Assembly: GCA_964431835.1 (NCBI GenBank)
Contig: CAYSKO010000011.1
Location: 1 to 54,591, forward strand
Reading direction: 5' to 3'
Origin: an uncultured Planctomycetia bacterium
GTDB taxonomy: Bacteria > Omnitrophota > Gorgyraeia > 2-02-FULL-51-18
DNA length: 54,591 bases
The position numbers were made by a program, and so were the translations under genes. Below are positions 21,060 to 50,111 of this stretch, one piece after another. The notes below the pieces were generated by a model, which worked only from the letters and a program-made list of their open reading frames with translations, was not told the DNA's origin and made no database searches. The number at the start of each line of letters is the position of its first letter. Within the stretch, counting starts at the first letter, position 1.

Positions 21060-21103
21060 CTAATCCGATTCTAATCTTCCTCTAACAGACCCTGCTGTAT
21101 ATT
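21060..21103 (+). promoter_or_regulatory. phased CTAAT-repeat promoter (site 1)
   Basis: CTAAT(21060)-ccgatt-CTAAT(21071)-cttcct-CTAAC(21082)-agaccctgctg-TATATT(21098-21103). It lies 77 nt upstream of the tpsA-like ATG. Confidence 0.65.
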
Positions 21104-21180
21104 AAAATCTAACCCCATATTTATTTCCGTCTTTCAGAAAAATTAACCGAGTTTAGCTAACGTTCCAGCTAAAGGATCCC

Positions 21181-24100
21181 ATGAGACGCAATCCCCTAAG
21201 GGCCGCATCAGGCCTCGTGGCTTTTTTTGTGCTTTTTATCCAAACTTTCGCTTACGCTGAAGATCTCCCCGCCGGCTACCAACCCGTCTCAGGCAGCTCG
21301 ACTTACAAAGTGGAAGGCAAGACCGGGACGCTCCAAGCGTCCGACGCCGTCACGATAGGCGAGTGGTCGAAAGGGTTCGACATCGCCCAAGGAAACACAT
21401 TCAACGCCCTTTTGCCAGCGAATGGGGCGCATCTGTCGCGCGACATCACCCAAAGCCCGTCGGAGATATTCGGCTCGCTGAACGTCCCCCAAGGTAAATT
21501 CTTTCTCGTGAATTCCAGCGGCGTGTATTTCTCTCCGACGGCCCAGGTCAACGCCGCTGGCCTAGTGGCCTCGACACTCGACATCAAAAACGACGACTTT
21601 CTCCGTCAAAACTTCAAATTCTTCCAAAACGGCAGCGCCTCATCCCTCGTGAATGAAGGGAAGATCACCGTCGGCGCGGGAGGCCTCGCGTTCCTGGGCG
21701 GGTCCGTCGAAAATAAAGGCGTCCTTTTGGCCCGGGAAGGAAACGTGGCGCTCGCCTCCGGAAAGGCCATGACCTTGAGCTTCGACCCGGAAGGGCTTGT
21801 GTCCGTCCTCGTCGATGAGAAGCTATCGGACGTTCCCGCGCCTAGGACAGACGCCGTCAAAAACAGCGGTTTCATCCGCGCCGAAGGCGGAAACGTGCTC
21901 TTGACCGCCGAGGCGCAGGACGGCCTCTTCGCGTCGCTTGTGAATCAGGAAGGCATCATCGAGGCGGGCAGCCTGTCAAACGCGAACGGAAAAATCACCC
22001 TTGTCTCCAACATAAGCACCGGAGTCGTCGGGAATTCAGGCATTTTAAAAGCGCCGGGCGGGTCTATCGAGGTTTTGGGCGAGAAGGCCGGAATGTTCGC
22101 GGGAGAAGCCACTGTCTCCGGCCCTAAAGCCGGGACCATCAATATCGGCGGAAACTTTCAAGGCAACGGCCCGCTCCGCGATGCGCAGTACACCACTGTC
22201 GGCAAAGACGCGAGCCTGAAAGCCGACTCTTCTCTAGGCGAAGGTGGAAGGATCATCGTCTGGTCGGACAAGGCCACTCAAGTTTATGGCAACTTATCGG
22301 CTAAAGGCGCAACGAAAGGCGGCTTCGTTGAGACCTCCGGCAAAGATTATCTCTATGTGGATAAGGCGCCTGAGATCGGCAGCGGAGGCACATGGCTTCT
22401 TGACCCGAGAAATATCACAATAACCAATTCGACAAGCGGCACAAGCCAAAGTGGCGGGACGTTTACACCCGCGTCCGACAACGCGACGGTGAGCGCCTCG
22501 TCCATCAATAGCGCGCTCAATGTGGGTACGAATGTCATCGTTAACACCAACAACTCTACCGGTTTCCAATCGGGGAACATCACGGTCGCAAGCGCTATTT
22601 CAAAAACGTCCGGTCCCGATGTCTCTTTAACCTTGACGGCGGCGAATAACATCAACGTCAACGCCACAATCACCTCCACGGCGGCAAAGCTAAACCTGAA
22701 TCTTCTCGCGGACGACGATGCTTCCGGTGCGGGGGGAACATTCGTGACCCAGAGGATAGAGACAAATGGAGGGGATTTAGATAGCCGCGGACGAACGTTC
22801 CGCAACAGCGGTGCCGGGGAAATCCAGATGAATTCCGGCAGATTGAACATCGATGCGGGGAGCAGTATTTTTATCCAGACCCCGCTTCATTCGACATTTA
22901 GAGTCGATTTGGACGCGGCGCAAATAGAGATCACCGGCTCGCTGACCGACCCTTTCGATCTGTTCATTAACGGCTCGAATGTTTCGGCGCAAGGCGTTAT
23001 TTCAGGCCTACGATCGGTGTCGATCCACTCGAATGAACTTCGTTTGGGAAGCGTTACCACTTCCGGGACCCAAAATTATGGTCCGATCCTGGACAATCTG
23101 CTGGAAAACACGAACATTTTATACGGCAATCTGACTGCCAGTGACAGCATTGCTTTGACCGGAAATACAATATTGGGTGCGCCCGTGCGTATTCAAAGCC
23201 CGTCGATCTCTTTCCAAAGCGCACTGATTCTTGCAGATAGCGGATATTATTATCAATTCGGATCTCTGACCGGCCCTTACAGTCTTGTTTTAGATGCAGG
23301 CACCAGCGGCGGCATCGGGTTTGCCGGCAGCTTCATCGAGGACCAGTGGGGCGATTACCGTTATACCGGCTATATGACGGACATCGGCAGCTTGAGGGCA
23401 GACTCGCTATATTTCAGGGGCTCCATCAACGCGCAGGGGCCGATCGACGTCCGATCGCCGAATATCGGGGTGGATCCGGGGTATATAAGTCCGCACGGCA
23501 GCGGTGGAGGGGGGTTCACGTCGCAGGGCGGCGATATCCATCTTGGGGGAGACCTGCATTCGGACGGTTACGGGGTCGCGATCCAAAGTAACGGGGGAGA
23601 CATCACCGTAGATGGGGATGTCAGTAACAGCGGAAATTATTATGACACTCTCAATGTCAGCTCGGGCGCCGGGGACGTTTTTTTCAACGGCTCGGTCGCG
23701 ACGGGCGCTCTTACGGTCACAAACACTAATAATTTGCGTTTCGGGGGAAACGTTATAACGCCCGAAGGCCAGACGATCACCGCAAGGACGATACGGACGA
23801 ACGGGACGCATGAAGTAGGGGGCTTCGGCCCGCACCGGGATTTCACGATGACGGGCGATATCCTTGTCGAAAGCAACACGATCTTCCGCCAAACAACGGG
23901 AAACATCCAGATCGACGGCACGATCAATACGGCCACCGGCAACGAATCCCTGGCTATGATCGCCAGCCAATATCATGGGTCGGGAGAAGAATTTTATCCC
24001 GATGGAAATGTCACGCTGAATGGATCCGCCGGCGTCACGACCAAATTGAACGATATTTCGATCTCTGCGGAACGGGCTATTAGCATCAACAGAAATATCC

Positions 24101-26031
24101 ACGCCTCGACGATCACGATGAACTCCCCTGTCAATACGGGCGCCAATACTTTTGCCTTGGCCGGAGATGAAATCAATCTTTTGGGCGCCGTTTCGGGAAC
24201 CGGCAATTTGACGCTGCGGCCGCTATTTTTGAACCGCGGCATGAATATCGGCGGAACCGTCGACAGCGCCACCGCGCTCGACCTCACCCAATCCGACCTT
24301 TCTCAGCTGTCCAACGGGTTTAATTCCCTGACCCTCGGCAACTCCGGCGGTTTCGGGTACGTGAACATTGTCATGCCTGTCACATTTAACGATCCCGTTT
24401 CCCTCCTGTCTTCGGCCGGAGGCGCGATCAACGTGAATGGTCAAATTACTGGCGCCGATAATGCCTCCGTTTTACTGAATGGCGTCGCGACTAATTTAAA
24501 TGCCAACATTCTGACCAATGGCAATGCCGTCACGATCAATGACAATGTCAGACTCCAGCGCGACTTGTCGATTCAAACGACCGGCGGAGGGAGGCCGGGA
24601 GCCAATATCGCCATCAATGGGACAGTAAACGGACTGACATCGGGCCAGGAAGACTTGTCGCTTTTGGCCGGTACGGGCAATATCAATCTGACGGGACAGG
24701 TGGGGTATAATCCGGCCACGGCAGTCGGCACTCGCGTGGGAAGGCTCTCGCTTCAGGGCACGTCGATCACAGCTAATAGCCTCGTTACCGCCTCCTCCAT
24801 CGTTCAATCGCCCGCATCCGGCACGACGACGCTAAGCTCGTTGAATACCAACGGAGCGCTGGGCATCGATCTGAATGGAAATCTTTTTACGCTGAACGGC
24901 CCGATCACGACGTCCGGCGGCGGACCTTTGAGCATCACCAATTCAGGGCTTCTGACCATCGGTTCGGCGGCGGACATGACGTTGGACGGATCGTTTCTAC
25001 AGGATGGAGCGGGACCTGTGCGTCTGGCAGGCGATATCCGCACGACCAATGATAATCTCACGTTTTTAGGTCCCATCACCTTGACCGGCGATCTTTTCCT
25101 TGGCACCGGAACTGGCATCGGAAATATTCTCTTTAACCGTTCTCTCTACGGAACGACTGCCGGACAGGAAGATTTGACGCTCCAAGCCGGCACCGGAAAT
25201 ATCACTTACAACGGCATCGGCGCCGGAGTCGGCCCGTCTCTTGGACGTCTGGTCATCCAAAGCGCGTTTAACGTCACGGCAAATAACGGCCTGTCGGCTT
25301 CTTCGCTATTGCAGACGGCCGGCACCGGAACGACGACGCTGAGCGGCTCCCTTCTGACGACCGGCGGACTGGGCATCGATCTAAACGGAACTAATTTTGT
25401 CCTAAATAATCCGATCACAACCACAGGCGGCGGGCCGCTGAGCATCACCAATTCGGGCACACTGACGATAGGGCTTAACGCCGACATGGCGCTCGATGGC
25501 GCCTTTTTACAGGACGGCACGGGACCTGTACGTCTGGCAGGCGATATCCGAACGACCAATGACAACATCACGTTCCAGCGAGCTGTCACGCTTACCGGCG
25601 ACCTCTTCTTGGGAACTGGCACGGGCCTTGGCAATATTCTTTTTAACAGCACCCTTTATGGGACCACGTCGGGACAGGAAGACCTCACCCTCCAAGCGGG
25701 AACGGGGAATATTACCTTCAACGGGCAAGTCGGTTACAACCCGTCCACCGGTGTTGGTGTTCGTATCGGAAAACTCGTAGTCCAAAGCGTGCAAAATCTC
25801 TTGGCGAACAACATCATTACTGCCGCTTCGATCACCCAGCAGGAAGGCTTCGGCACCTCGACGTTCAGAAACATCCTGAGGACAAACATTTTGCCGGGGA
25901 TCAGCCTTACGGGGAATAACTTCAGCCTGGCCGGCGCTATCGCGACGGCCGGACAGATCGTCATCAATTACCGCGGCACCGTCACACGCACCGGCACCTA
26001 TTCCCCGACGCCGATATTAAGGAGAAGGTAG
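21181..26031 (+). CDS. TpsA/filamentous-haemagglutinin-family giant secreted protein (1616 aa)
   Basis: Signal peptide LVAFFVLFIQTFAYA. The N-terminal TPS (haemagglutination-activity) domain pattern is GKTGTLQ...ITIGEWSKGFDIAQGNTFNAL...SEIFGSLN..GKFFLVNSSGVYFSPTAQVNAAGLVAST. The rest is long G/T/N/S-rich beta-helix repeats. Confidence 0.85.
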   Translation: MRRNPLRAASGLVAFFVLFIQTFAYAEDLPAGYQPVSGSSTYKVEGKTGTLQASDAVTIGEWSKGFDIAQGNTFNALLPANGAHLSRDITQSPSEIFGSLNVPQGKFFLVNSSGVYFSPTAQVNAAGLVASTLDIKNDDFLRQNFKFFQNGSASSLVNEGKITVGAGGLAFLGGSVENKGVLLAREGNVALASGKAMTLSFDPEGLVSVLVDEKLSDVPAPRTDAVKNSGFIRAEGGNVLLTAEAQDGLFASLVNQEGIIEAGSLSNANGKITLVSNISTGVVGNSGILKAPGGSIEVLGEKAGMFAGEATVSGPKAGTINIGGNFQGNGPLRDAQYTTVGKDASLKADSSLGEGGRIIVWSDKATQVYGNLSAKGATKGGFVETSGKDYLYVDKAPEIGSGGTWLLDPRNITITNSTSGTSQSGGTFTPASDNATVSASSINSALNVGTNVIVNTNNSTGFQSGNITVASAISKTSGPDVSLTLTAANNINVNATITSTAAKLNLNLLADDDASGAGGTFVTQRIETNGGDLDSRGRTFRNSGAGEIQMNSGRLNIDAGSSIFIQTPLHSTFRVDLDAAQIEITGSLTDPFDLFINGSNVSAQGVISGLRSVSIHSNELRLGSVTTSGTQNYGPILDNLLENTNILYGNLTASDSIALTGNTILGAPVRIQSPSISFQSALILADSGYYYQFGSLTGPYSLVLDAGTSGGIGFAGSFIEDQWGDYRYTGYMTDIGSLRADSLYFRGSINAQGPIDVRSPNIGVDPGYISPHGSGGGGFTSQGGDIHLGGDLHSDGYGVAIQSNGGDITVDGDVSNSGNYYDTLNVSSGAGDVFFNGSVATGALTVTNTNNLRFGGNVITPEGQTITARTIRTNGTHEVGGFGPHRDFTMTGDILVESNTIFRQTTGNIQIDGTINTATGNESLAMIASQYHGSGEEFYPDGNVTLNGSAGVTTKLNDISISAERAISINRNIHASTITMNSPVNTGANTFALAGDEINLLGAVSGTGNLTLRPLFLNRGMNIGGTVDSATALDLTQSDLSQLSNGFNSLTLGNSGGFGYVNIVMPVTFNDPVSLLSSAGGAINVNGQITGADNASVLLNGVATNLNANILTNGNAVTINDNVRLQRDLSIQTTGGGRPGANIAINGTVNGLTSGQEDLSLLAGTGNINLTGQVGYNPATAVGTRVGRLSLQGTSITANSLVTASSIVQSPASGTTTLSSLNTNGALGIDLNGNLFTLNGPITTSGGGPLSITNSGLLTIGSAADMTLDGSFLQDGAGPVRLAGDIRTTNDNLTFLGPITLTGDLFLGTGTGIGNILFNRSLYGTTAGQEDLTLQAGTGNITYNGIGAGVGPSLGRLVIQSAFNVTANNGLSASSLLQTAGTGTTTLSGSLLTTGGLGIDLNGTNFVLNNPITTTGGGPLSITNSGTLTIGLNADMALDGAFLQDGTGPVRLAGDIRTTNDNITFQRAVTLTGDLFLGTGTGLGNILFNSTLYGTTSGQEDLTLQAGTGNITFNGQVGYNPSTGVGVRIGKLVVQSVQNLLANNIITAASITQQEGFGTSTFRNILRTNILPGISLTGNNFSLAGAIATAGQIVINYRGTVTRTGTYSPTPILRRR
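24646..25800 (+). repeat. internal tandem coding repeat (about 2.3 units of 510-519 nt) in the tpsA-like gene
   Basis: Units start with QEDL(S/T)L.AGTGNI at 24646, 25165 and 25675. Long near-identical stretches occur, e.g. GPVRLAGDIRTTNDN(L/I)TF and GGGPLSITNSG.LTIG in consecutive units. Confidence 0.85.
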
Positions 26032-26043
26032 GACTATCGACGC

Positions 26044-27207
26044 ATGGAAAAAAATCGGGGCTGGTTCGACGAGGCGCTTTATCTCCGCGGTATTGCGGCC
26101 ACTTGTGTCTTGGTTACACACGCCTGGGGCCAGACCGTCAATCACGCCTCTCTACTAACCCCCGCGTATCTCATAGGCGTGACCACTTTCATCCTCACCA
26201 AAGGATTCATGACGTTTATGGCAGTGTCCGGGTTCGTATTGACGAATAAATACGCGCCCGACACCAACTGGATGGAGTTTTACACCAAGCGTCTCAGGGC
26301 GGTCGTGCCGCCTTACATTGCGTTTTCAGCGATCAATGTCGTGGGCCTGGCCTGGGGCACGAACGATTCTCACGGGCTTCAGAGAATCATCAAGGCGATC
26401 GCCAAAGGCGACAGCGCCGCGCATATGTGGTTTTTTGTCAGCATCATTCAGCTCTATCTTCTTTTTCCTCTCATTTATAAGATCTATCTATGGTTCGAAA
26501 GCCGACAGCGGGCGATTTGGCCCGTCGTCATCTCTTTTGCTCTCTTTGCCCTGTGGATCGGCCTCGAAGCCTTTGTACGCGTGATCGGGCCGGATAGGGG
26601 CACTCATCAGGGCTTTGACGCGGCAATCGAAGTTCTGCCGCCCCGCGTTTTCTTGAATGGGCTTCCATTTTTTGTAATGGGGATTTACGCGAGACGCCAC
26701 TATGAAATGATCAAAGAAAAAGTGCTTAGGATGTCTGTCCCCATCTTGTTCATGGCACCGTTTGCGCTTGCGGTCACGGCGGCCCTAATAGAAGCCAATC
26801 GAGCCGCGACTTCTTTGAGAGGTGTCTATATTGAAGAGACCCCAATGGCGCTATTCATAAGCTGCCTGATAAAACCTTTATTGATAGTGCTGCATTTTCG
26901 CTTGGCGATATATTTGACCATGCATCCGTCTTTTGCTTTGGCGAAAATGTTCCGGCATATCGGCGGGCTCTCGTTCGGAATATTTTTGATTCATGTTTTA
27001 GTGCAGGTTCACGTTCAAAGAAGCCTCACTTCACTAGGGTTCGCCTATGACAATATTTTATTGTATCCCGTCTTATTTGCTCTGACACTCTGCCTCTCGT
27101 ATGGAAGTGTATGGCTGCTCAGCAGGCTTCCATACAGCGAGTGGTATATCGGCGTCAAAAAACCTTCCCTTGCGAATGAACGCGTCGTGATAAGAGCCGC
27201 CGCCTAA
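26044..27207 (+). CDS. acyltransferase family 3 (OafA-like) integral membrane protein
   Basis: About 10 predicted TM segments. The N-terminal pattern ...LRGIAATCVLVTHAW... (conserved His) is typical of acyltransferase_3. Confidence 0.75.
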   Translation: MEKNRGWFDEALYLRGIAATCVLVTHAWGQTVNHASLLTPAYLIGVTTFILTKGFMTFMAVSGFVLTNKYAPDTNWMEFYTKRLRAVVPPYIAFSAINVVGLAWGTNDSHGLQRIIKAIAKGDSAAHMWFFVSIIQLYLLFPLIYKIYLWFESRQRAIWPVVISFALFALWIGLEAFVRVIGPDRGTHQGFDAAIEVLPPRVFLNGLPFFVMGIYARRHYEMIKEKVLRMSVPILFMAPFALAVTAALIEANRAATSLRGVYIEETPMALFISCLIKPLLIVLHFRLAIYLTMHPSFALAKMFRHIGGLSFGIFLIHVLVQVHVQRSLTSLGFAYDNILLYPVLFALTLCLSYGSVWLLSRLPYSEWYIGVKKPSLANERVVIRAAA

Positions 27208-27896: not shown

Positions 27897-28337
27897 ATGG
27901 CCAAACTCAAAACTCAGCAAACCGAGAGACAAAACAACACGCCGGTCAGCATCGTCTGGGACGGCATCCTGCTTCTGCCGATCTTCGGCATGATCGATTC
28001 CACGAAGGTGCAGAGCACCATGGAAGCGATGCTTGAAAAGATCCTGGAAACCGAAGCGAAGATCATCATTCTGGACATCCTCGGCGTCGCGGCCGTCGAC
28101 AGCGCCGTCGCCAACAACATCGTCAAAATCACCAAAGCCACGAAGCTCATGGGCTGCGACTGCATCGTATCCGGTATTTCGCCCGCCATCGCACAGACCA
28201 TCGTGCATCTGGGCGTCAGCCTCGGCGAGGTCGTGACGAAGGCCACCTTGAAGGACGCGCTCGAACTCGCTTTTGCGGCCTGCTCGCTCGAAGTCCGGGA
28301 CAAGACCAAAGAGCCGACGTTCAGGAAAAAAGAATAG
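27897..28337 (+). CDS. rsbR: RsbR-type STAS protein lacking an N-terminal sensor domain
   Basis: AAGGAG SD sits 7 nt upstream. TPVSIVWDGILLLPIFGMIDSTKVQSTMEAML...IIILDILGVAAVDSAVANNIV...LMGCDCIVSGISPAIAQTIVHLG aligns by eye with the C-terminal STAS domain of B. subtilis RsbR. Only about 30 aa precede the STAS domain. Confidence 0.8.
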   Translation: MAKLKTQQTERQNNTPVSIVWDGILLLPIFGMIDSTKVQSTMEAMLEKILETEAKIIILDILGVAAVDSAVANNIVKITKATKLMGCDCIVSGISPAIAQTIVHLGVSLGEVVTKATLKDALELAFAACSLEVRDKTKEPTFRKKE

Positions 28338-28344
28338 CGATCCG

Positions 28345-28797
28345 GTGAAGATCGCCTACAACTGCCTGATCGTCGATTACAGGGACGAAGTGACCGACCA
28401 GAAGGTTTCTTCGTTTCAAAAGCTCGTTCTCGACCAGGCGCTCCTCGGAAACGTCAAAGGAGTGATCCTGGACGTGTCGGCGGTCACTCTCATGGATTCG
28501 TTCGCGAGCCGGAGCCTTCTCGACACCTGCCGGATGACGAACCTTTTGGGAAAACGCGCGATCGTGGTCGGCATGAAGCCCGCCGTCGTTTTTTCGCTGG
28601 TCGACATGGATGTCGAGCTGAACGGTGTCGAGACGGCCGTAAATGTCGAGAGCGCGATGACTCTTATCGATCCGCCCGCGGACAAAATCATAAAAGACAT
28701 CGGAGAAGAGCTTGACGAAAACGAAGATTCGGAAGAATCCGAAGGCGACGAAAAAGACGCCGTCGCAGATGCCGCCCAAGAGGGCCGGGAAGACTAA
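28345..28797 (+). CDS. rsbS: RsbS-type STAS protein with an acidic roughly 40-aa C-terminal tail
   Basis: Start taken at GTG 28345. YNCLIVDYRDEVTD...VILDVSAVTLMDSFASRSL...GMKPAVVFSLVDM resembles RsbS, including the phospho-Ser context MDSF. The tail is DENEDSEESEGDEKD. Confidence 0.75.
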   Translation: MKIAYNCLIVDYRDEVTDQKVSSFQKLVLDQALLGNVKGVILDVSAVTLMDSFASRSLLDTCRMTNLLGKRAIVVGMKPAVVFSLVDMDVELNGVETAVNVESAMTLIDPPADKIIKDIGEELDENEDSEESEGDEKDAVADAAQEGRED

Positions 28798-29182
28798 GCT
28801 TGTCCGTATCTCCTGCAGGGCGGATATCGAAACGGCCGTCGACTGTTCGATATCATACGCCTCTGAAATAGGTTTTAAGTCCGCCGAGCGATGCATGATC
28901 GGCACGACGGTGTCAGAGCTGGCGACGAATATCTTTCGTTACGCGACTGCGGGTGGTGAGATACGGATCGCGGAGTCTTCGTCGCGAAAGACCGGAATAG
29001 TAATCATCGCAAAAGACGACGGTCCCGGCATCAAGAACCTGAAAAAAGCGATGAAGGACAGCTACACCACGACGGTCGGAAGCCTCGGCATCGGCCTGCC
29101 CGGAGCCCGGAGGCTGATGGACGTATTTCGTATCCAATCGGGCAGAGGCACGGTCGTGACGGTAAAAAAATGGCTCAAGTGA
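28769..29182 (+). CDS. rsbT: RsbT-type serine kinase / switch protein (HATPase_c, anti-sigma regulatory factor family)
   Basis: Start probably at ATG 28769, overlapping the rsbS-like tail. VSELATNIFRYA, IIAKDDGPGI and LGIGLPGARRLMD resemble RsbT N/G boxes. Size is about 137 aa. Confidence 0.75.
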   Translation: MPPKRAGKTKLVRISCRADIETAVDCSISYASEIGFKSAERCMIGTTVSELATNIFRYATAGGEIRIAESSSRKTGIVIIAKDDGPGIKNLKKAMKDSYTTTVGSLGIGLPGARRLMDVFRIQSGRGTVVTVKKWLK

Positions 29183-29772
29183 CCCCAGCCGCCGACTTTC
29201 ATTTTTTAAACAAGCGCTGGTCTCCGGCAGAACCCTGCGCGGATACGGGATTCATTAAGGAAAGCAAGGGATCCGTCTTTTTCGCTCTCGCCGACGTGGC
29301 CGGTCACGGCCGCAGCGCCGCCGTGTTCGTCCCCAAGATTCTGAAGCATTTTAAAAAAAATTACGACAAAGACCTCGTCGATACGATGAACAGCCTTCAC
29401 GACCTCCTGAGGGGGACCCGGGGCGCCGCCGCGGTGGCGGGCCGGATGAATCTGACGGGTGGGCGCGTGGAGTACGTGGGGCTCGGCAACATCTCCGTGC
29501 GGAAGTTCGGAAAAAACCCGGTCAGGAAGGTTTCCAACGAGGGGATCATCGGGTACGTGATCCCCGCGGCGAAAAAAGAAAGCGTTAAGATGTCCAAAAA
29601 GGACGTCCTGTTACTTTATACCGACGGAATCAGGGATCACTTCGATGCGTCGGAATGCCCGTCCGGTTTTTTCGACCTTTCGGCAAAAAAAATAGCGGGC
29701 GGCATCATGAAGTTCTTCAATAAAGGCAATGATGATGCAGGATGCATCGTTTTACGGTATAAAAACGGCTGA
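29170..29772 (+). CDS. rsbX: RsbX-like PP2C/SpoIIE-family phosphatase (200 aa)
   Basis: CADTGF...FFALADVAGHGRSAAV and LLLYTDGIRD match the GD...DG.GHG and ..TDG motifs of SpoIIE/RsbX phosphatases. It overlaps the rsbT-like stop by 13 nt. Confidence 0.7.
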   Translation: MAQVTPAADFHFLNKRWSPAEPCADTGFIKESKGSVFFALADVAGHGRSAAVFVPKILKHFKKNYDKDLVDTMNSLHDLLRGTRGAAAVAGRMNLTGGRVEYVGLGNISVRKFGKNPVRKVSNEGIIGYVIPAAKKESVKMSKKDVLLLYTDGIRDHFDASECPSGFFDLSAKKIAGGIMKFFNKGNDDAGCIVLRYKNG

Positions 29773-32738: not shown

Positions 32739-32782
32739 CTAATATTTTCTTAACCTTCGTATAATGGCGTTTAGGCTAATTT
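32739..32782 (+). promoter_or_regulatory. degenerate phased-pentamer promoter (site 5, weaker)
   Basis: CTAAT(32739)-attttc-TTAAC(32750)-cttcgt-ATAAT(32761)-ggcgtttaggc-TAATTT(32777-32782). It lies 45 nt upstream of ATG 32828. Confidence 0.35.
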
Positions 32783-32827: not shown

Positions 32828-33112
32828 ATGAACAGCGAAAAACCGTTTCTTACGGACGTAATGGAGCTTCGGCGGCGCGCGCTAGCCAAGACTCCCGTAA
32901 AAGTAATTTTTTTGATGGAGACAGCCCAACATAATGCGTTCAGGTCGCCTGGCGCCCCGTCAATTGAGGGGCTGAGGAACAAGCCGACGCGATGGCCCAA
33001 GAAAGAAATTGAGAGCGGGAGAGACGAGGATCGACAAGCGAAGAAGAAACACTTTAATACCCACGGGATATGGGATTCTATTCGCCGACGAGGCACTAGA
33101 CGAGACAAATGA
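32828..33112 (+). CDS. possible small basic hydrophilic protein (94 aa)
   Basis: The ORF follows the site-5 promoter-like element at the same 40-45 nt spacing seen for sites 3 and 4. It has a weak RBS, K/R/E-rich composition and no recognised family, and an antisense ORF of similar size exists. Confidence 0.3.
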   Translation: MNSEKPFLTDVMELRRRALAKTPVKVIFLMETAQHNAFRSPGAPSIEGLRNKPTRWPKKEIESGRDEDRQAKKKHFNTHGIWDSIRRRGTRRDK

Positions 33113-33210
33113 AGAATATGATTGAGCTGTTTTGACCTTACCCCCTAAAACCGTACAGTTGCCAAAGGCGTTCTCCTGGGTGTAAAAGTAAGAATAAGGA
33201 GACGCATCCC

Positions 33211-34334: not shown

Positions 34335-34459
34335 AACCTGTACGCTTAGAGGGGTAACGTCATGCTGACCGCTGTGATTTTACTGTCGAAGAGAATAGCT
34401 GCCAACTGAGGAGGGAGTATGAAGTCGATCGCCAAGTCAATGAAGGGTGGGGGTGGGCG

Positions 34460-37662: not shown

Positions 37663-37843
37663 GCGTTGAGAGGACGGAGAAATACGCTTTCCCTTGCCCA
37701 GTCACAAGTAATTCATTATAATTATTAATATTTAGCAAGTGGGTCTAAGAAAAAGCATATTTCTTAGAGGGCTTTTCAGATGGTCGGGCCGCCGTCTGGT
37801 GTGCATCAAATTACACCAGATGGCGGTCTTCTATATTAAACGG

Positions 37844-38659: not shown

Positions 38660-38662
38660 CCC

Positions 38663-40879
38663 ATGAAAGTAACCTTAAGACTCATTCTTTCGCTCATCCT
38701 CGTTACCACAGTTGTCGCGCTGGGATCTTCTGTCTGGCAGGCGCGCCAGGAAGAGACACGCCTGAAAATTGAACTCGAAAAACGCGTGGATTTTGTCGCC
38801 GACGGGCTCGGGGATCTTCTTCTTCCTTCCTTGGTAAGCGGCCAGATAGACGTTTCGAAGCGTATCATCGAAAAATTTTCGAATCGGGAGAAACTTCTCG
38901 GGATATCTATTTACGATTCAACCCGGCACTTGATCGTCGCGTCGCAAAATATTGAATCGATCATCGGAGATGTGTCGAGGTCCGCCGTTGAACCCGTCCT
39001 GTCTGATGAAAATAAAAGCTACGGACGCCTTATCGACCTGGGAAAGGACAAGGCCCACGCCTATTCGGTGATTCTTAATCCCGAAGGCCCTAACACGTAT
39101 GTTTTGACACTATTTCATCAGACTCAATATATCCATGACCGGGTAAAGAGGATTTGGATCAACGCTTTTTGGCGTCTCAGCCTGCAGATATTGGTCATTT
39201 CGCTTACAACGCTTCTTATTTTTTATTTGAACGTCATGTCGCCGATCAGAAGAACTGCCGAATGGGTCAAAAAGATTCGTTTGGGGGAAGACACCGATCA
39301 CGAAAAGCCTGAGCCGCTGCTGGGGCCGCTCGCCAAAGAGGTTTCGCACATGGCTAAAAGCCTTCAAATGGCGCGCCGATCCGCGGAAGAAGAGGCCAGA
39401 CTGCGCCATGCCTCGGAATCGGTTTGGACGGCGGAACGATTAAAGGAATTCGTCCGAATCAAATTAGACAAAAGGCCTTTGTTTGTCGTTTCTCACCGGG
39501 AACCTTATATGCACGTGAAAAAGGGGAGCGCCGTCGAATGGATCGTTCCGGCGAGCGGTCTTGTGACTGCCATCGAACCGGTTTTGAAGGCTTGTGGCGG
39601 CACGTGGATTGCCCAGGGCGCGGGAAATGCCGACAAAGATACGGTCGACCAGAACGACAAAATCCGGGTCCCGCCGGACGACCCGCAGTACACCCTCAAG
39701 AGAATCTGGTTATCCCGAGGTGAAGAAGAAGGCTACTATTATGGTTTTTCCAATGAGGGGCTATGGCCGCTTTGCCATATCGCGCACACGAGGCCCACGT
39801 TCCGCGCCACCGATTGGTTTGCCTATAGGGAAGTGAATAAAAAATTTGCCGAATCGGTCCTGAAAGAGCTCGAAGGAACCAGTGAGCCATGTGTCCTCAT
39901 CCAGGATTATCATTTTGCGCTGCTACCTGCACTTATCAAAGCCGCGCGGCCCGATGCTCGCGTGGCGTTATTTTGGCATATCCCGTGGCCGAATCCAGAG
40001 TCGTTTGGAATTTGTCCCTGGCACAAGGAGGTTTTGAAGGGAATGCTTGGTGCTGATATTATCGGCTTCCACACTCAATTTCATTGCAACAATTTCATCC
40101 AAACCGTCGATCGTTTCCTCGAAAGCCGCATCGATTACGAACATTTCACCGTGACGCGGGAAGCCCACACGACTTCAATCAAGCCGTTTCCTATCAGCAT
40201 CGCCGACGATGCGCCAAAGAAGCCCCTCCAAACCGATAGGGCGGGCCTATTGAAACCATATGGAATTCACGCGCAATACCTTGGCATCGGCGTCGATCGT
40301 CTGGATTATACCAAAGGAATCATCGAGCGCTTTCGCGCGGTCGAGTACTTCCTCGAGACGAACCCTATTTACCAGGGAAAATTCACTTTCATCGAGCTGG
40401 GAGCACCGAGCCGGACGCTTATTCCGAAATATCAGGAATTCATGAACGAAATCGAGAAGGAAGTGGAAAGGATCAACGAGAAGTTCAAGGTCAAAAATTG
40501 GCAGGCGATTCTATTTTTAAAGAAGCACCACAGCCACGAGGAAATCGCCCCGTTTTACCGGTTCTCGGACGTCTGCCTTGTGACTTCTTTGCATGACGGC
40601 ATGAATCTTGTTGCAAAGGAATTTGTTCATGCGCGGGAAGACGAGAAAGGAGTTCTGGTCCTCAGCGAATTTACGGGAGCGGCCAGGGAGCTCAAGGATG
40701 CCTTGATCGTGAATCCTTATGATGCGATACAGACTTCCGAGGCAATACGCGCCGCACTCGAGATGTCGGATCAGGAGCAAACGAAGCGCATGAAACGCAT
40801 GCGAGCCGGAGTGAAATCGAGAAATATTTATAAATGGGCCGCTGATCTTGTGGGTGACTTGGCGGAAGTTAGCAGATGA
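38663..40879 (+). CDS. otsA: trehalose-6-phosphate synthase (GT20/OtsA) with an N-terminal TM, periplasmic domain, TM and HAMP-like extension
   Basis: The C-terminal roughly 470 aa read PLFVVSHREPY...GLVTAIEPV...YYYGFSNEGLWPLCH...IQDYHF.LLP...GIGVDRLDYTKG..., which is the GT20 core. The N-terminal roughly 260 aa contain two TMs (ILSLILVTTVVALGS, LQILVISLTTLLIFYL) flanking about 150 aa, followed by an amphipathic HAMP-like segment (VMSPIRRTAEWVKKI...LAKEVSHMAKSLQ). Confidence 0.85.
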   Translation: MKVTLRLILSLILVTTVVALGSSVWQARQEETRLKIELEKRVDFVADGLGDLLLPSLVSGQIDVSKRIIEKFSNREKLLGISIYDSTRHLIVASQNIESIIGDVSRSAVEPVLSDENKSYGRLIDLGKDKAHAYSVILNPEGPNTYVLTLFHQTQYIHDRVKRIWINAFWRLSLQILVISLTTLLIFYLNVMSPIRRTAEWVKKIRLGEDTDHEKPEPLLGPLAKEVSHMAKSLQMARRSAEEEARLRHASESVWTAERLKEFVRIKLDKRPLFVVSHREPYMHVKKGSAVEWIVPASGLVTAIEPVLKACGGTWIAQGAGNADKDTVDQNDKIRVPPDDPQYTLKRIWLSRGEEEGYYYGFSNEGLWPLCHIAHTRPTFRATDWFAYREVNKKFAESVLKELEGTSEPCVLIQDYHFALLPALIKAARPDARVALFWHIPWPNPESFGICPWHKEVLKGMLGADIIGFHTQFHCNNFIQTVDRFLESRIDYEHFTVTREAHTTSIKPFPISIADDAPKKPLQTDRAGLLKPYGIHAQYLGIGVDRLDYTKGIIERFRAVEYFLETNPIYQGKFTFIELGAPSRTLIPKYQEFMNEIEKEVERINEKFKVKNWQAILFLKKHHSHEEIAPFYRFSDVCLVTSLHDGMNLVAKEFVHAREDEKGVLVLSEFTGAARELKDALIVNPYDAIQTSEAIRAALEMSDQEQTKRMKRMRAGVKSRNIYKWAADLVGDLAEVSR

Positions 40880-41015
40880 AGGTCGCCACCAATGAGCGCG
40901 TATGCAACCCCATCCAGTCCTCTCGTGAAAGCCATTTCGATAGGGGGGAGGTTCTGATCCAATTGCTGGCAAATTAGGAAGGCGTTAGGCTGATTCTGAC
41001 CTTTCTTAAATATCT

Positions 41016-41059
41016 CTAATTCAAATCTAATCCCGTCCTAATATCTAGTGCGATATTTT
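41016..41059 (+). promoter_or_regulatory. phased CTAAT-repeat promoter (site 2)
   Basis: CTAAT(41016)-tcaaat-CTAAT(41027)-cccgtc-CTAAT(41038)-atctagtgcga-TATTTT(41054-41059). It lies 76 nt upstream of the BON gene ATG. Confidence 0.65.
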
Positions 41060-41135
41060 ATAAGAAGAGATAAGTTTTCCCGCCCGTCGCACCCCTTTCT
41101 TTACAAGCCTGTCCAATTTTTAGAAAGGAGTTTTT

Positions 41136-41669
41136 ATGAAAAAGCATATATTTCTTGCCGCGTGCGCGCTAGTTTCCGCGCCCTTGGCTGTTTACGCCGA
41201 CACAGGCCCTGGATTATCCAATCAAATAACCGATCGGCAAATAACGTCCGCCATCGAAAAAGACATGCAGACAGACTCCGCGATATCGGCGCACCTGGTG
41301 GAAGTAGACACGAAAAGCGGCGTCGTGACGATTTCCGGATATGTGGGCAACCTTCTTGAGAAAGACCGGGCGCTTGAGATAGCTGAATCCAACCGTGGGG
41401 TCCGCGCGGTGATTAACAAGCTTCAAGTCCGCTCGTTGTACAGAGGAGATCAGGAGATATTAAACGACGTTAAGATGGCGCTCGTTGAAGATCCCGCAAC
41501 GGACGGATATGAAATCGCGGTGTCCGTGTACGGAGGCGTTGTAAAGCTGACCGGCACGGTGGATTCGTGGGCCAAAAAACAATTATCGATGGAAGTGGCC
41601 CGCGGAGTCAGAGGAGTTAAAGATGTGAAAGATAATTTGACCGCGGCGTCGCCTCAACCCGTTGTTTAA
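41136..41669 (+). CDS. periplasmic BON-domain protein (two BON domains)
   Basis: Signal peptide IFLAACALVSAPLAVYA. Two copies of the BON pattern are present (...V.V....GVVT(I/L)(S/T)G.V.......A.E.A....GV..V.N.L). Confidence 0.8.
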   Translation: MKKHIFLAACALVSAPLAVYADTGPGLSNQITDRQITSAIEKDMQTDSAISAHLVEVDTKSGVVTISGYVGNLLEKDRALEIAESNRGVRAVINKLQVRSLYRGDQEILNDVKMALVEDPATDGYEIAVSVYGGVVKLTGTVDSWAKKQLSMEVARGVRGVKDVKDNLTAASPQPVV

Positions 41670-41809
41670 AATTTCGGAGGCGTTCCTCCCCGTAACACCC
41701 CTGCACGACATTTCACAGAAAAATTCCACCCCGTTTAATCTTAAACGCCCTCACGCCATTCGTCCCGCCGCTCTTCTTTTATTGAGGAAGGGTATGACCT
41801 ATAAATAAG

Positions 41810-43273
41810 TTGAAGCGTTCACTGATGCGACAATCGATTTATTGCAATCGCCGAATGCTATGGGTGGCTTTGTTTGGTTTGCTCTGCTGGGGTGCGATGG
41901 CGCCAATGCTTGGGGCAAAGGAAGTCGGTAATACGTCAAACAATCAACCCGATGCAAACGAAAAAGAGCTTTCCTTCCCATTGGTGAAGGTGGCGGTGCA
42001 ACCCACCGCTAGCGATGAGGATATCCGCAAGCGGCTCCAGAGTGTTATGAATACCACTCACTGGTTTTCCGACCCCGAAGTCCAAGTCAATGACGGGGTT
42101 GTTTTTCTTAGGGGCAGGGCGCAGACCGATGAGATAAGGATGTGGGCCGGCCACCTAGCGCGCAATACCCAGGATGTGGTTGCCGTGGCCAACTTGATTG
42201 AAACATCCAAGCCATCTGTATGGAAATTTCGCGGTGCGTTGAATGCGTTGTCTTTGTTAGGACGTGATTTCATTCAGTCCCTGCCTCTCTTAATTTTTGG
42301 ATTATTTATCATGTGTTTGTCGGCAGGGGCTTGTTGGTTAGCAAAGCGTTATGCTCAATTATTTCTGCAGAACCGAGTTCGTCCGAAACTCCTGAGGAGT
42401 GTGCTTTCGTGGGTGGTAGGGGCGTTTGTGTTTCTTTTAGGCACCTATATTGTCTTGAGAGTCTCAGGATTGACCCAACTGGCTTTAACCATAATTGGTG
42501 GCACAGGTCTGGTTGGTTTGGTGGTTGGGATTGCCTTTCGCGATATTGTGGAAGGCTTTCTGGCTAGTATTTTCCTAAGTATGCAAAGGCCGTTTGAGAC
42601 AGGCGATCTGATCGAAATTGTTGGTGTGGTCGGGTATGTGCACCAGCTGAACATTAGAACGACCGTTCTAATGACGCTTGACGGTAACCTGGCGCAAGTT
42701 CCTAATGCCTTGGTTTACAAGAGTACACTTTGTAATTTTACGAGCAGTCCAAACCGTCGTGAGAGCTTCATCATTGGCATTGGTTATGATGACTCGATTG
42801 ACGAAGCTCAAGAAGCTGCTCGGAGAGTTTTGATGAATCACCCCGCTGTCCTGAAGGATCCGGAACCTTGGGTATTGGCTGATGACCTGGGTAAAGCAAC
42901 CGTTAATTTGAAAGTCTATTTTTGGCTCAATGGGCATGAACATAGCTGGCTGAAGGTGCGATCTTCAGTTATACGCCTTGTGAAACGCGCTTTTCAACAA
43001 CAAGGCATTACAATGCCTGATGAAGCAAGGGAAGTTATTTTTCCGAGTGGCGTTCCTGTTACCCTGCTTGATGCGAAGCAAGAAAAATTACAGGAACCCG
43101 AGGCGCTTAAATCGACGACCCCCAAGAAGCCCCAACCTTTAAAAGGATTGGATGAAGTGTCCACTAAAGCGGAAGCGGGGTTCTCAAGTGATGCTGATGA
43201 GTTAGGGCAACAGGCAGGTCAAGCCAAGTCCTTGGACGAAGGTGAGAATCTTTTACGGGATACCGCGACATAA
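41810..43273 (+). CDS. BON-domain / MscS-family mechanosensitive channel fusion
   Basis: The N-terminal secreted BON-like segment is PEVQVNDGVVFLRGRAQTDEIRMWAGHLARNTQDVVAVANLI. TMs follow, then the MscS core GTGLVGLVVGIAFRDIVEGFLASIFL...FETGDLIEIVGVVGYVHQLNIRTTVLMTLDGN. The start is uncertain (TTG 41810 or ATG 41825). Confidence 0.8.
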   Translation: MKRSLMRQSIYCNRRMLWVALFGLLCWGAMAPMLGAKEVGNTSNNQPDANEKELSFPLVKVAVQPTASDEDIRKRLQSVMNTTHWFSDPEVQVNDGVVFLRGRAQTDEIRMWAGHLARNTQDVVAVANLIETSKPSVWKFRGALNALSLLGRDFIQSLPLLIFGLFIMCLSAGACWLAKRYAQLFLQNRVRPKLLRSVLSWVVGAFVFLLGTYIVLRVSGLTQLALTIIGGTGLVGLVVGIAFRDIVEGFLASIFLSMQRPFETGDLIEIVGVVGYVHQLNIRTTVLMTLDGNLAQVPNALVYKSTLCNFTSSPNRRESFIIGIGYDDSIDEAQEAARRVLMNHPAVLKDPEPWVLADDLGKATVNLKVYFWLNGHEHSWLKVRSSVIRLVKRAFQQQGITMPDEAREVIFPSGVPVTLLDAKQEKLQEPEALKSTTPKKPQPLKGLDEVSTKAEAGFSSDADELGQQAGQAKSLDEGENLLRDTAT

Positions 43274-43282
43274 GATTTGCTT

Positions 43283-44620
43283 ATGAATAAACTCAAACAA
43301 CTCTGGATCGATCTCCGATCAAGTTTTTGGTTTGTGCCGTCCTTGATTGTCTCGGCTAGTATTGTCCTTGCAGTCACATTGATTGAATTCGATGCCATCG
43401 AGGGAGATCGATGGTTGGCGCGGTGGCCGCGTCTCTTCGGAGCCGGAGCGGAAGGTGCGCGTGGGATTTTATCTACGATTGCTGGTTCGATGATGTCTGT
43501 GGTAGGTGTTACATTTTCCATGACCTTAGTGGTGCTAGCGCTAGCTTCGAGTCAATACACCTCACGTATCCTGCGGAATTTCATGAAAAGCCGCGTTACG
43601 CAAAGTACCATCGGAATCTTCGCCGGTATTTTCACTTATTGCCTGATCGTGTTGCGTACCATTCGAAGCGGTTCCGACGGCTCATTTGTCCCAAATATAG
43701 CTGTTTTTTTCAGCGTTGTACTGGCTATTTGCGGAATCGGGGTTCTCATAGCTTTCATTCATCATATGAGCTCTTCCATTCAAGCTTCAAATATTGTCGC
43801 CTCCGTGGCCGAGGAAACCATACAAAGCATAGACGAGTGTTTCCCTGAACAGCTTGAAAATGAAGCAGAGAAGGACATTCAGGAGCAAACTAAAATTTAT
43901 AACACAGAACGGAAGTGGCAAGTTATTCCAGCCAACAAAAGCGGTTATATTCAGAGCGCGGACCGTGCAGTCCTGTTGCGGCTAGCGCGAGAGAAAAAAG
44001 CTGTCGTACGAATGGAGCGTGGGGTTGGAGAATTCGTTGTACAAGGTACTTCGCTAGTATCACTCTCACTGGAAAAGTCATCAGATCACGAGACCATTAC
44101 CACCCTTCAAAAAGCCTTTGTTATTAGTCGGCACCGTACGATAGAACAGGATATGGCCTTCGGTATCAGGCAAATCGTGGACGTGGCATTGAAGGCGCTT
44201 TCACCCGGGATCAATGACGTTACAACAGCCGTGATGTGTATAGATTATCTTGCGGCGATTTTAACGCGACTCGCAACCCGGAAGATCCCTCCATTTGATT
44301 TTTACGAGGATCAGGAGCTGCGGGTGATTGCCAAGGGTCCAAGTTATGAAAGTTTATTGGATGAAGCATTTGATCAAATTCGGAACAATTCTTCAGGGAA
44401 TGTCACCATTATGGTGCGAATGCTCGGGGCTCTTCAAACTTGCGCCAGCAAAACGGTGAGTCCGAGCCGGCGGCAGGCACTTGAGCAACATGTGCGACGG
44501 ATTGCTGAACTAGCCGAACATAGTGTTACGTTTGCCCACGACCGTGCACGAATCGATACACAATTGACAACTATACGCGAAGCGCTTAATGCCACCCCAT
44601 TTCCCCACGACACACTCTGA
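43283..44620 (+). CDS. DUF2254-family membrane protein
   Basis: Start at ATG 43283 (the track's TTG 43277 is also possible). LWIDLRSSFWFVPSLIV and four N-terminal TMs plus a soluble C-terminal half are typical of DUF2254. Confidence 0.7.
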   Translation: MNKLKQLWIDLRSSFWFVPSLIVSASIVLAVTLIEFDAIEGDRWLARWPRLFGAGAEGARGILSTIAGSMMSVVGVTFSMTLVVLALASSQYTSRILRNFMKSRVTQSTIGIFAGIFTYCLIVLRTIRSGSDGSFVPNIAVFFSVVLAICGIGVLIAFIHHMSSSIQASNIVASVAEETIQSIDECFPEQLENEAEKDIQEQTKIYNTERKWQVIPANKSGYIQSADRAVLLRLAREKKAVVRMERGVGEFVVQGTSLVSLSLEKSSDHETITTLQKAFVISRHRTIEQDMAFGIRQIVDVALKALSPGINDVTTAVMCIDYLAAILTRLATRKIPPFDFYEDQELRVIAKGPSYESLLDEAFDQIRNNSSGNVTIMVRMLGALQTCASKTVSPSRRQALEQHVRRIAELAEHSVTFAHDRARIDTQLTTIREALNATPFPHDTL

Positions 44621-44806
44621 ACGAAAACAGCCCCTCCATCGTCTTATCCTCCCGTTTTAGGATGGTGGTCATTGATGTTGCCCCTCCAAGCACACAGTTC
44701 CTAAGGGCAACTTCTGTGGGTTTGGGTTGTCGTTTTTCCTACCACTGTCCAGCAAATTGCTCAGGCGACATGATGTCGGAGTAAAGAAAATGAGCGTTAA
44801 ATTTTT

Positions 44807-44849
44807 CTAATCCAACATTAATGATGTCTTAACCTGATGATTCTATAAT
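44807..44849 (+). promoter_or_regulatory. phased CTAAT-repeat promoter (site 3)
   Basis: CTAAT(44807)-ccaaca-TTAAT(44818)-gatgtc-TTAAC(44829)-ctgatgattc-TATAAT(44844-44849). It lies 39 nt upstream of the DUF305 ATG. Confidence 0.6.
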
Positions 44850-44888
44850 CATAGATATTTCTCGCAACGCAGGCAAGAAAGGCAAGTT

Positions 44889-45353
44889 ATGATGCCATAC
44901 CCAAAATTCGCCGCGATGATTGCGACCTCCACGGTCGTGATGTTTGGCCTGATGTATCTCAACGCTTACGCGTTCGACCACGTTTTCTTCAGCGAGACCC
45001 GCGCTTACATGGCGCTGCTCATGGGCGCTACGATGGCCGTCGTCATGCTCGGTTTCATGCTGAAGATGTATGACAATCGAAAAGCGAATATTGGCATCTT
45101 CGTGGGCAGTGCAGTTGTTTTTGCCGTGTCGCTTTGGCTCGTGCGCAGTCAGGCGACGGTCGAGGACGTTTCCTGGATGAAGGCGATGATCCCGCACCAT
45201 TCGATAGCGATTCTGACGAGCGAGCGCGCACACATTTCCGATCCGCGTATTCGGAAGCTCGCGGCTGGCATTATCGAAACGCAGCGCAAAGAGATCTTCG
45301 AGATGAAGGTGCTAATCGAAGACCTCGAGAAGAAAATCCCCAAGAAAGCGTGA
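44889..45353 (+). CDS. DUF305-family protein with N-terminal TM segments
   Basis: MIPHHSIAILTSE and ...KLAAGIIETQRKEIFEMK match the DUF305 pattern (M..HH..AI.M and A..I...Q..EI..M). Confidence 0.7.
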   Translation: MMPYPKFAAMIATSTVVMFGLMYLNAYAFDHVFFSETRAYMALLMGATMAVVMLGFMLKMYDNRKANIGIFVGSAVVFAVSLWLVRSQATVEDVSWMKAMIPHHSIAILTSERAHISDPRIRKLAAGIIETQRKEIFEMKVLIEDLEKKIPKKA

Positions 45354-45380
45354 TGCCCGAGCTTACGAGAAGGTTTTGAC

Positions 45381-46637
45381 ATGTTAAAGAAAATACGCTT
45401 TTTTCTAACGCATGATCTTTGGAGGATCCGCGCGAAACGACTTCCCAGGAAAAAGGCCGTCCCGATCGGATTCCTTCGTGTCGTGATGCTCACCGCAAGA
45501 CAGTTTCGAAAGGATAATTGTCAGCTGAGAGCGTCGGCATTGACCTATTTCACGTTGATGTCGGTCGTGCCAATCTTGGCTTTGGCGTTCGGAATTGCGA
45601 AGGGATTTGGACTCGAACGGCGCTTCGAGGCGATGCTTCTTCGCGAACTGCCGAGCCAGGAAGAAGCGCTTCGGCGAATCATCGGTTTTGCGGTGGAAAT
45701 GCTCAAGTCGGCGCAGGGGGGCGCCATCGCCGGCATCGGCATCGTATTCCTCATTTGGGCGATCATCCGGATGCTTGGGCAGATCGAAAACGCTTTCAAC
45801 GACATATGGGGCGTTAAAAAGGGACGCACGCTCGGGAGAAAGTTCACGGACTACATTTCGTTGATGTTCTTGTTTCCCATTACTCTCGTTCTTGCCGGCA
45901 GTCTGAACGTGTTTCTGGCGGGACAGCTGGCCAGCGGCACAATTGGCGCGTTACCCGATGCGATTGAGAAGCTCCTGATTATATCGTTGCCACTGCTTTC
46001 GTTTCTCGTCATCTGCGGGCTCCTCAGTTTTTTGTACGTGTACTTGCCCAATACGCCGGTGCATATCGGATCCGGCATCATCGGCGGGGTGAGCGCAGCG
46101 CTCGTCTATGAGGCGGTGCAGTGGGGCTATATCCATGCGCAGATTTTCTTCAGCAGCTATGGCGCGGTTTATGGAAGCTTTGCGGCGTTGCCTCTTTTCT
46201 TAATCTGGCTTCAGCTCAGTTGGATGGTCATCCTTCTCGGCGCCGAGCTGGCATTTGCGCATCAAAACGCGGACACCTATGAATTCGAACCGGATGCGCA
46301 ACGGGCGAGTTTCGGCTTGAGGAAGGTCTTGGCCATGCGAATAACCGCTTTATGCGTCGAACGCTTCAAGCGCTCGGAGCCTCCGTTGATGGACGAGGCG
46401 ATTTCATCGTCGCTGGACATACCGATCCGTCTTTGCAGATCGCTGATTGAGGATCTCATGAGTTGCGGGATTCTTTCTGAATCGCGGGGGAGCGGGGATC
46501 GATGCTTCGGTTACCAGCCGGCGATGCCGATCGAAGCGATTACACACGAGAAAATAGTGGCCGGTCTTGAGCGGGTGGGGTTCAATGACCTGCCTGTCGC
46601 CTCCATGCGCGAAGCGGGAGCGGAGGGACACAGTTAA
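45381..46637 (+). CDS. YihY/BrkB-family membrane protein with a C-terminal soluble extension
   Basis: ASALTYFTLMSVVPILALAFGIAKGFG and the six-TM layout are typical of the YihY family. An extra roughly 120-aa C-terminal domain is present. Confidence 0.8.
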   Translation: MLKKIRFFLTHDLWRIRAKRLPRKKAVPIGFLRVVMLTARQFRKDNCQLRASALTYFTLMSVVPILALAFGIAKGFGLERRFEAMLLRELPSQEEALRRIIGFAVEMLKSAQGGAIAGIGIVFLIWAIIRMLGQIENAFNDIWGVKKGRTLGRKFTDYISLMFLFPITLVLAGSLNVFLAGQLASGTIGALPDAIEKLLIISLPLLSFLVICGLLSFLYVYLPNTPVHIGSGIIGGVSAALVYEAVQWGYIHAQIFFSSYGAVYGSFAALPLFLIWLQLSWMVILLGAELAFAHQNADTYEFEPDAQRASFGLRKVLAMRITALCVERFKRSEPPLMDEAISSSLDIPIRLCRSLIEDLMSCGILSESRGSGDRCFGYQPAMPIEAITHEKIVAGLERVGFNDLPVASMREAGAEGHS

Positions 46638-46687
46638 AAGGAACTGGACGGATGAAAAGAGGTGTCTGCTTAAGCGGTTAAAAAATT

Positions 46688-46731
46688 CTAATTTACTTCT
46701 AACCCCGCTTTAATCCCGGGGGACTTATACT
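46688..46731 (+). promoter_or_regulatory. phased CTAAT-repeat promoter (site 4)
   Basis: CTAAT(46688)-ttactt-CTAAC(46699)-cccgct-TTAAT(46710)-cccgggggact-TATACT(46726-46731). It lies 40 nt upstream of ATG 46772. Confidence 0.65.
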
Positions 46732-46921: not shown

Positions 46922-46922
46922 C

Positions 46923-50110: not shown

Positions 50111-50111
50111 C

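Follow-up and report, generated by a model that had tools for sequence, protein, structure and literature searches.

The boxes recognized by WalR/VicR (TGTWAH-N5-TGTWAH) and SaeR (GTTAA-N6-GTTAA) in Firmicutes are direct repeats with an 11-bp period, and the Pho box ends about 10 bp ahead of the -10 element. At the -35 region, PhoB occupies direct repeats in tandem and makes contact with sigma (PMC3348028), and SphR needs a minimum of three 8-bp units (CTTAACCT), bound in tandem with 3-bp linkers between them (PMC1906773). An OmpR-family regulator of Sulfurospirillum recognizes CTATA repeats with gaps of 6 nucleotides (nt) that overlap the -35 (PMC7755780). Here we analyze a 54,591-base (54.6-kb) stretch of Omnitrophota DNA, hereafter the window, which carries five arrays of comparable layout: three YTAAY pentamers whose starts lie 11 nt apart (the third pentamer of one array is ATAAT), followed after 10-11 nt by a TANNNT hexamer. 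We conclude that these arrays are a genuine cis-regulatory motif, and we take them to mark out a small regulon. By analogy with the systems above, we think it likely that each array is the operator of one OmpR/PhoB-family winged-helix response regulator encoded outside the window, because phased direct repeats abut the -10 without a -35, as they do in OmpR/PhoB-type activator sites.

The likeness to the Pho box of PhoB (Escherichia coli) and SphR (cyanobacteria) lies in tandem direct repeats with an 11-bp period that replace the -35 and end about 10 nt before the -10. The SphR half-site (CTTAACCT) also resembles the cTTAACct of sites 3 and 5 as numbered below (PMC1906773), but the commonest half-site in the window is tCTAAT, and the downstream genes are unrelated to phosphate. 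At pceAB of Sulfurospirillum multivorans, the RR2 pentamer likewise occurs three times with a period of 11 nt, overlaps the -35 and is bound in electrophoretic mobility shift assays (PMC7755780); the RR2 authors' own consensus takes the outer two copies only, CTATW-N17-CTATW (PMC7755780). The RR2 pentamer is CTATA, however, and its phylum and regulon (organohalide respiration) are unrelated to those described here. The half-sites of WalR/VicR and SaeR (TGTAAT, GTTAA) are very similar to those of the window, but their boxes hold two repeats rather than three or four, the position of the -10 is variable, and the regulators belong to other subfamilies. When the literature was searched for CTAAT or TCTAAT together with response regulators, most matches were primers and no paper describing the half-site was found; in the papers searched, Omnitrophota likewise had no described regulon or binding site of a transcription factor.

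The five arrays and the genes behind them

An earlier note on this DNA had given the positions of the five arrays, the 11-nt spacing of the pentamers, the 10-11 nt to the TANNNT box and the distances to the next start codons. On re-reading, the positions and spacings proved exact and the distances correct. In the following list, the last distance runs from the end of the TANNNT box to the ATG on the same strand, and the scores are those of the matrix described below.

21060..21103, plus strand: site 1; CTAAT at 21060, CTAAT at 21071, CTAAC at 21082; 11-nt gap; TATATT at 21098-21103; 33.9 bits; 77 nt to ATG 21181
41016..41059, plus strand: site 2; CTAAT at 41016, 41027 and 41038; 11-nt gap; TATTTT at 41054-41059; 32.7 bits; 76 nt to ATG 41136
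44807..44849, plus strand: site 3; CTAAT at 44807, TTAAT at 44818, TTAAC at 44829; 10-nt gap; TATAAT at 44844-44849; 26.8 bits; 39 nt to ATG 44889
46688..46731, plus strand: site 4; CTAAT at 46688, CTAAC at 46699, TTAAT at 46710; 11-nt gap; TATACT at 46726-46731; 35.3 bits; 40 nt to ATG 46772
32739..32782, plus strand: site 5, weaker; CTAAT at 32739, TTAAC at 32750, ATAAT at 32761; 11-nt gap; TAATTT at 32777-32782; 21.3 bits; 45 nt to ATG 32828

The presumed target operons of sites 1-4, and the open reading frame (ORF) behind site 5, are as follows.

21181..27207, plus strand: operon 1, TpsA-like exoprotein (TPS domain, 1616 amino acids) and Acyl_transf_3 membrane acyltransferase
41136..44620, plus strand: operon 2, BON-domain protein, BON-MscS mechanosensitive channel and DUF2254 membrane protein
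44889..46637, plus strand: operon 3, DUF305 protein and BrkB/YihY-family membrane protein
46772..50110, plus strand: operon 4, small ORFs (49 and 77 amino acids), GH15 trehalase-like hydrolase (TREH_N + Glyco_hydro_15) and glucose dehydrogenase
32828..33112, plus strand: ORF94, behind site 5, with no Pfam match

All five arrays are intergenic and co-oriented with the next gene or operon, 39-77 nt ahead of its start codon. The earlier note had counted all five as correctly placed before start codons, which holds for strand and intergenic position; site 5, though, may not precede a real gene. ORF94 is not called as a gene in a near-identical JGI contig; its coding status is doubtful, and hence so is site 5 as the promoter of a protein gene. 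The true -10 of site 5 is also ambiguous, because its third pentamer is embedded in a perfect TATAAT (32760-32765). An extra distal TTAAA precedes the first pentamer of sites 2-4 at a distance of 10 rather than 11 nt. At site 1, a lone CTAAC (21111-21115) just 3' of the -10 does not keep the phase of the array.

The expression TAA-N8-TAA-N8-TAA had five matches on the plus strand of the window, precisely the five sites, and none on the minus strand. With the period set to 7-10 or 12-18 nt, the same expression had no match at all, so that the pattern occurs at period 11 only. As a control, we made 1000 dinucleotide-preserving shuffles in 500-nt blocks, which gave means of 0.09 matches (maximum 2) for three TAA, 0 for three YTAAY and 0.001 for the pattern with its -10. 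The earlier note's rough estimate, that such a pattern is expected far less than once, was therefore right. A matrix built from the 15 units scored the sites at 21-35 bits; the window holds no hidden weaker copies, because the next-best unrelated position in it scores only 12.8 bits. The motif is short and A+T-rich, and a chance or compositional artefact of A+T-rich spacers had to be considered for that reason. It is excluded by the five sites observed against 0.09 expected at local composition (0.001 with the -10), by the lack of matches at other periods, and by the lack of any array in 1.0 Mb of control DNA from other bacteria with a G+C content (GC) of at least 0.5. The five regions can be aligned in the motif columns only. 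A mobile or duplicated promoter cassette was ruled out, the flanks not aligning outside these columns, and no Rfam family matched the arrays themselves.

The absence of a recognizable -35 was likewise borne out. A consensus -35/-10 scan of 40000-54591 called no sigma-70 promoter, with a TTGACA-like -35 placed 16-18 nt ahead of the -10, at sites 2-4, and no -35 was seen by eye at sites 1 and 5.

Related arrays in Omnitrophota and in metagenomes

The GC of the window drops from about 63% to about 52% directly past a tRNA-His gene (20568-20644), and all five arrays are located in the low-GC portion beyond it. A drop in GC at a tRNA gene typically marks an island that has integrated there, and the earlier note had placed the motif upstream of at least four island operons. 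The motif is not confined to the island. We reached a further ~200 kb of Omnitrophota DNA through homologues of TpsA and MoxR, and found no YTAAY array in it besides one on contig L206.

L206, 3291-3345: sixth array, CTAAG-N6-CTAAT-N6-TTAAT-N6-CTAAG with a gap of 11 nt to TATGCT

This array has the 11-nt offset of the window sites and lies 43 nt ahead of the likely start codon of a hemerythrin-MsrB-receiver operon. L206 has a GC of 0.63, correlates at 0.96 in tetranucleotide composition with the core of the window and comes from the same sample series. Judged by composition and shared samples, L206 and the window probably belong to one organism, and the sixth copy lies outside the island, in core-like DNA.

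This bears on whether the arrays are read by a specific factor at all. An alternative sigma factor with an unusual upstream element, a nucleoid-associated silencer of A+T-rich DNA of foreign origin, or a contact with the polymerase alpha subunit in the manner of an UP element would account for A+T-rich repeats and for five window sites that all fall in the low-GC island starting at tRNA-His. We regard such a reader as very improbable. The sixth site stands in core-like DNA of 63% GC; the strict 11-nt phasing, the single orientation and the specific TAA core in a C/T frame are not properties of silencer or UP sites; and a -35 element read by a sigma factor would not come in three to five equivalent copies. 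In addition, arrays elsewhere are linked to response-regulator genes, as described below.

Two other Omnitrophota loci, L209 and L211, encode a regulator whose best match is PhoB, adjoining pstSCAB or a phosphate porin, and each has a phased promoter.

L211, 22120-22174: CTTCAC-N5-CTTCAT-N5-CCTCAT-N5-CTTCAA with a gap of 10 nt to TATACT
L209, 22776-22830: CTTCAT-N5-CTTCAT-N5-TTTCAA-N5-CTTCAT with a gap of 10 nt to TATCCT

Four CTTCAY units in 11-nt phase before pstS and the phosphate porin are probably the Pho box of Omnitrophota. OmpR-family activators of this phylum thus share the exact layout of the window sites with another half-site; this speaks for the proposed class of mechanism and rules out PhoB itself. 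We rejected the window motif as a Pho box, since its half-site is YTAAY rather than CTTCAY and its downstream genes are not those of phosphate acquisition. The earlier note had called the sites pho-box-like, and this stands for their design (phased repeats, a -10 and no -35); by its sequence, the window motif is pho-box-like in design and is not the Pho box of its lineage.

We then turned to metagenomes with the pattern TTAA-N6-TCTAAT-N6-YTAAY-N6-YTAAY, which asks for four in-phase pentamers and specifies no -10. The window sites do not match it, their distal TTAA being one base closer, so the scan probes the general architecture and gives no count of the exact window motif. It returned at least 80 loci (587 kb), with 79 usable matches among those listed, and the counts that follow refer to the matches listed. 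A TANNNT box stood exactly 10 nt past the last pentamer in 18 of the 79. On contigs with a GC of at least 0.44, it stood at 10 nt in 11 of 28, and every other offset from 0 to 29 was represented 0-2 times. In three Bacteroidota-like loci, the box at the 10-nt offset was TAnnTTTG, the -7 element proper to that phylum.

Twelve of the 80 loci encode OmpR-family regulators, 13 in all and 47-97% identical to each other, compared with one in a control set of 1.16 Mb. YTAAY arrays thus adjoin genes of one OmpR-family regulator clade far more often than chance allows. The array was about 30-140 nt from the start codon of the regulator in nine loci, on the same strand and upstream in L158 and divergent in L162, L113, L144, L146, L153, L105, L137 and L155. 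In several loci there are two or even three arrays. The candidate regulators are classical REC + Trans_reg_C proteins throughout. For the five that we tested, the best model was TIGR01387 (heavy-metal response regulator subfamily) with 225-240 bits against a cut-off of 279.2, and their scores below this cut-off place them in a sister clade outside TIGR01387. A link to the CusR/CopR/HprR systems of that subfamily is seen in one window target, DUF305, which on plasmids is found in copper/metal-resistance loci. The targets beside the array-adjoining regulators, in contrast, are mostly not metal genes; they vary by locus and include HPF (a ribosome hibernation factor), RIC/hemerythrin-like, Usp, OmpA-like, MgtA, MgtC, a cation antiporter, TolC and Hsp20.

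Consistent with the earlier note's comparison to sites of OmpR/PhoB-type activators, the metagenome arrays have a -10 at a fixed offset and OmpR-family neighbors, and the PhoB-type promoters of Omnitrophota have the same geometry. The same observations help to weigh activation against repression. An OmpR-family protein that sits on promoter elements can act as a repressor, and the -10 boxes of the window sites are strong (TATAAT, TATATT, TATACT); the regulator could then be a repressor or roadblock over -50 to -25, with the promoters working through their -10, either as an extended -10 or with another upstream element. We consider this improbable. The four strong sites have neither a -35 nor a TGn extended -10, the offset from array to -10 is constant across unrelated phyla, which is a requirement of recruitment and not of occlusion, and the PhoB-type promoters of the same phylum share an identical geometry.

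Two high-GC contigs of the metagenome set, each with a four-pentamer array and a -10, showed a further common feature. In L084 (minus strand, downstream of 1808-1845) and L122 (plus strand, downstream of 133-170), the same non-coding sequence, GATTTGCGGTGGTCG ... CACACCGCC, comes after the array; it contains no ORF and matches nothing in Rfam. This stretch may be a small RNA or a leader under a similar regulator.

A predicted regulon and its proposed regulator

In the mechanism that we propose for an OmpR/PhoB-family activator, modeled on PhoB, the phosphorylated regulator would bind head-to-tail to three (perhaps four) tTCTAAYc units, with all copies on the same face of the DNA because the units are one helical turn apart. 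If transcription starts about 7 nt past the -10, the units would lie near -51, -40 and -29. The proximal protomer would occupy the place of the missing -35, contact region 4 of sigma and recruit a sigma-70-type polymerase to a good -10. From the similarity of the motifs, the regulator is most likely a member of the CusR/CopR-like clade found with similar arrays in other phyla.

The predicted regulon would comprise the TpsA operon, the BON/MscS/DUF2254, DUF305/BrkB and GH15/glucose dehydrogenase operons and, in addition, the hemerythrin-MsrB operon of L206. It would bring together trehalose turnover, mechanosensitive channels, a two-partner-secretion exoprotein and proteins of the BON and DUF305 families, a gene content that suggests envelope, osmotic and oxidative stress. 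Genes of a foreign low-GC island would thereby be wired to a motif that recurs in core-like DNA, probably of the same organism. Omnitrophota are uncultured, and the motif is of value as a first testable regulon for the phylum. The mechanism itself is textbook (OmpR/PhoB type) and overturns nothing. Of value, too, is the half-site, which seems to go together with a single regulator clade in different phyla, and phased YTAAY arrays with a fixed -10 beside this clade may aid the prediction of regulons from metagenomes.

Several observations weigh against an OmpR/PhoB-family activator of this clade as the reader of the window sites. The 54.6-kb window encodes no DNA-binding response regulator: Pfam found none (Trans_reg_C or other) among the main ORFs, and phmmer with an OmpR-type C-terminal domain found no Trans_reg_C protein among all window ORFs of at least 90 amino acids, in agreement with the earlier note. 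The metagenome arrays that have a -10 place it at 10 nt, compared with mostly 11 nt in the window, and because both pattern and offset differ, the link of the window to the CusR-like clade is one of motif similarity and not of identity. The half-site does not predict a signal, because the targets of the array-adjoining regulators differ among loci. Activation rather than repression is read, by analogy, from the missing -35 only. Finally, phylogenetic footprinting was impossible, because no orthologous promoters at intermediate divergence were found. The loci of DUF2254 homologues (80 genomes from many phyla, up to 67% identity; 1.16 Mb) had no array; no homologue of the BON protein below 99% identity was found, and the contigs that encode this protein are of the same strain (99.9% identity). 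Plasmid homologues of the DUF305 gene in Paracoccus and Sagittula had no array and adjoin CsoR-type regulators in copper loci.

The lack of a cognate response regulator in the window also speaks for a one-component winged-helix activator, ToxR/CadC-like or SARP/AfsR-like, in place of a two-component regulator. SARPs bind repeats of 11-bp period near the -10, the ToxR box is a direct repeat, and by sequence layout alone such activators and a response regulator are indistinguishable. Nevertheless, the candidate genes adjoining arrays are all of the REC + Trans_reg_C type, and we saw no ToxR- or SARP-like gene beside any array, so that we give this alternative a small chance and retain a response regulator as the probable reader.

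A broader proposal would have the TCTAAY array as the shared code of an undescribed CusR-like clade found on Bacteroidota, Acidobacteriota-like, Firmicutes-like and Omnitrophota contigs. The member present here would be the DNA-binding output of the sensory genes on the island (stressosome-like STAS/RsbT/PP2C, two orphan histidine kinases, the receiver-only protein and KaiB), tying horizontally acquired genes for osmotic, desiccation and oxidative stress and the secreted TpsA adhesin into one regulon. We offer this tentatively, as an unlikely extension.

Gene order and other features of the window

The left 20 kb of the window is syntenic with Omnitrophota contigs, and the best named relatives of its MoxR ATPase (830-1822) are proteins from metagenome-assembled genomes of Candidatus Omnitrophota/Omnitrophica, at 75-84% identity. 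The low-GC part begins with the TpsA-like exoprotein and the acyltransferase, followed by a stressosome-like row with two histidine kinases, a receiver-only protein and KaiB, and then by an IS3 element, MscS and a TamB-like protein. Next come a Na+ riboswitch ahead of an OtsB-OtsA fusion, the BON, BON-MscS and DUF2254 genes, and the DUF305 and BrkB genes. After these are the two small ORFs, the GH15 trehalase-like enzyme, glucose dehydrogenase, superoxide dismutase, a baeRF protein and an Nramp-like transporter. Beyond the target operons, the features are these.

27897-32697: stressosome-like row of STAS, STAS, RsbT-like kinase and PP2C phosphatase, then histidine kinase, receiver-only protein, KaiB and PAS histidine kinase
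33133-34362: IS3-family element, with orfA at 33211-33492 and orfB at 33489-34334
37741-37798: nhaA-I Na+ riboswitch (RF03057, 44.9 bits against a gathering score of 37)
51045-52208: baeRF family-3 protein, a bacterial relative of archaeo-eukaryotic release factors, adjoining an Fe/Mn superoxide dismutase
54057-54440: homologue of the Anabaena sensory rhodopsin transducer (ASRT), at the end of the window

No TpsB transporter gene is present in the window, and the gene that comes after the TpsA-like gene (21181-26031) is the Acyl_transf_3 acyltransferase. The homologues of TpsA on the Omnitrophota contigs L206, L209, L211 and L213 all have a TpsB gene adjacent to them.

The stressosome-like row has neither a KaiC nor a DNA-binding output nearby, and it is a candidate for the input of the CTAAT regulon. 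The IS3 element carries TGACCTTACCCCCTAAAACCGTACAG and TGACGTTACCCCTCTAAGCGTACAG as its terminal inverted repeats and may separate site 5 from the MscS and TamB-like genes that follow. We also considered whether the element had split a gene behind site 5; this was not supported, the stop codon of ORF94 preceding the element by 20 nt. The riboswitch is immediately ahead of an ORF of about 279 amino acids and the OtsB-OtsA trehalose-synthesis fusion (38663-40879), and trehalose synthesis by OtsB-OtsA may be controlled by sodium, separately from the CTAAT regulon.

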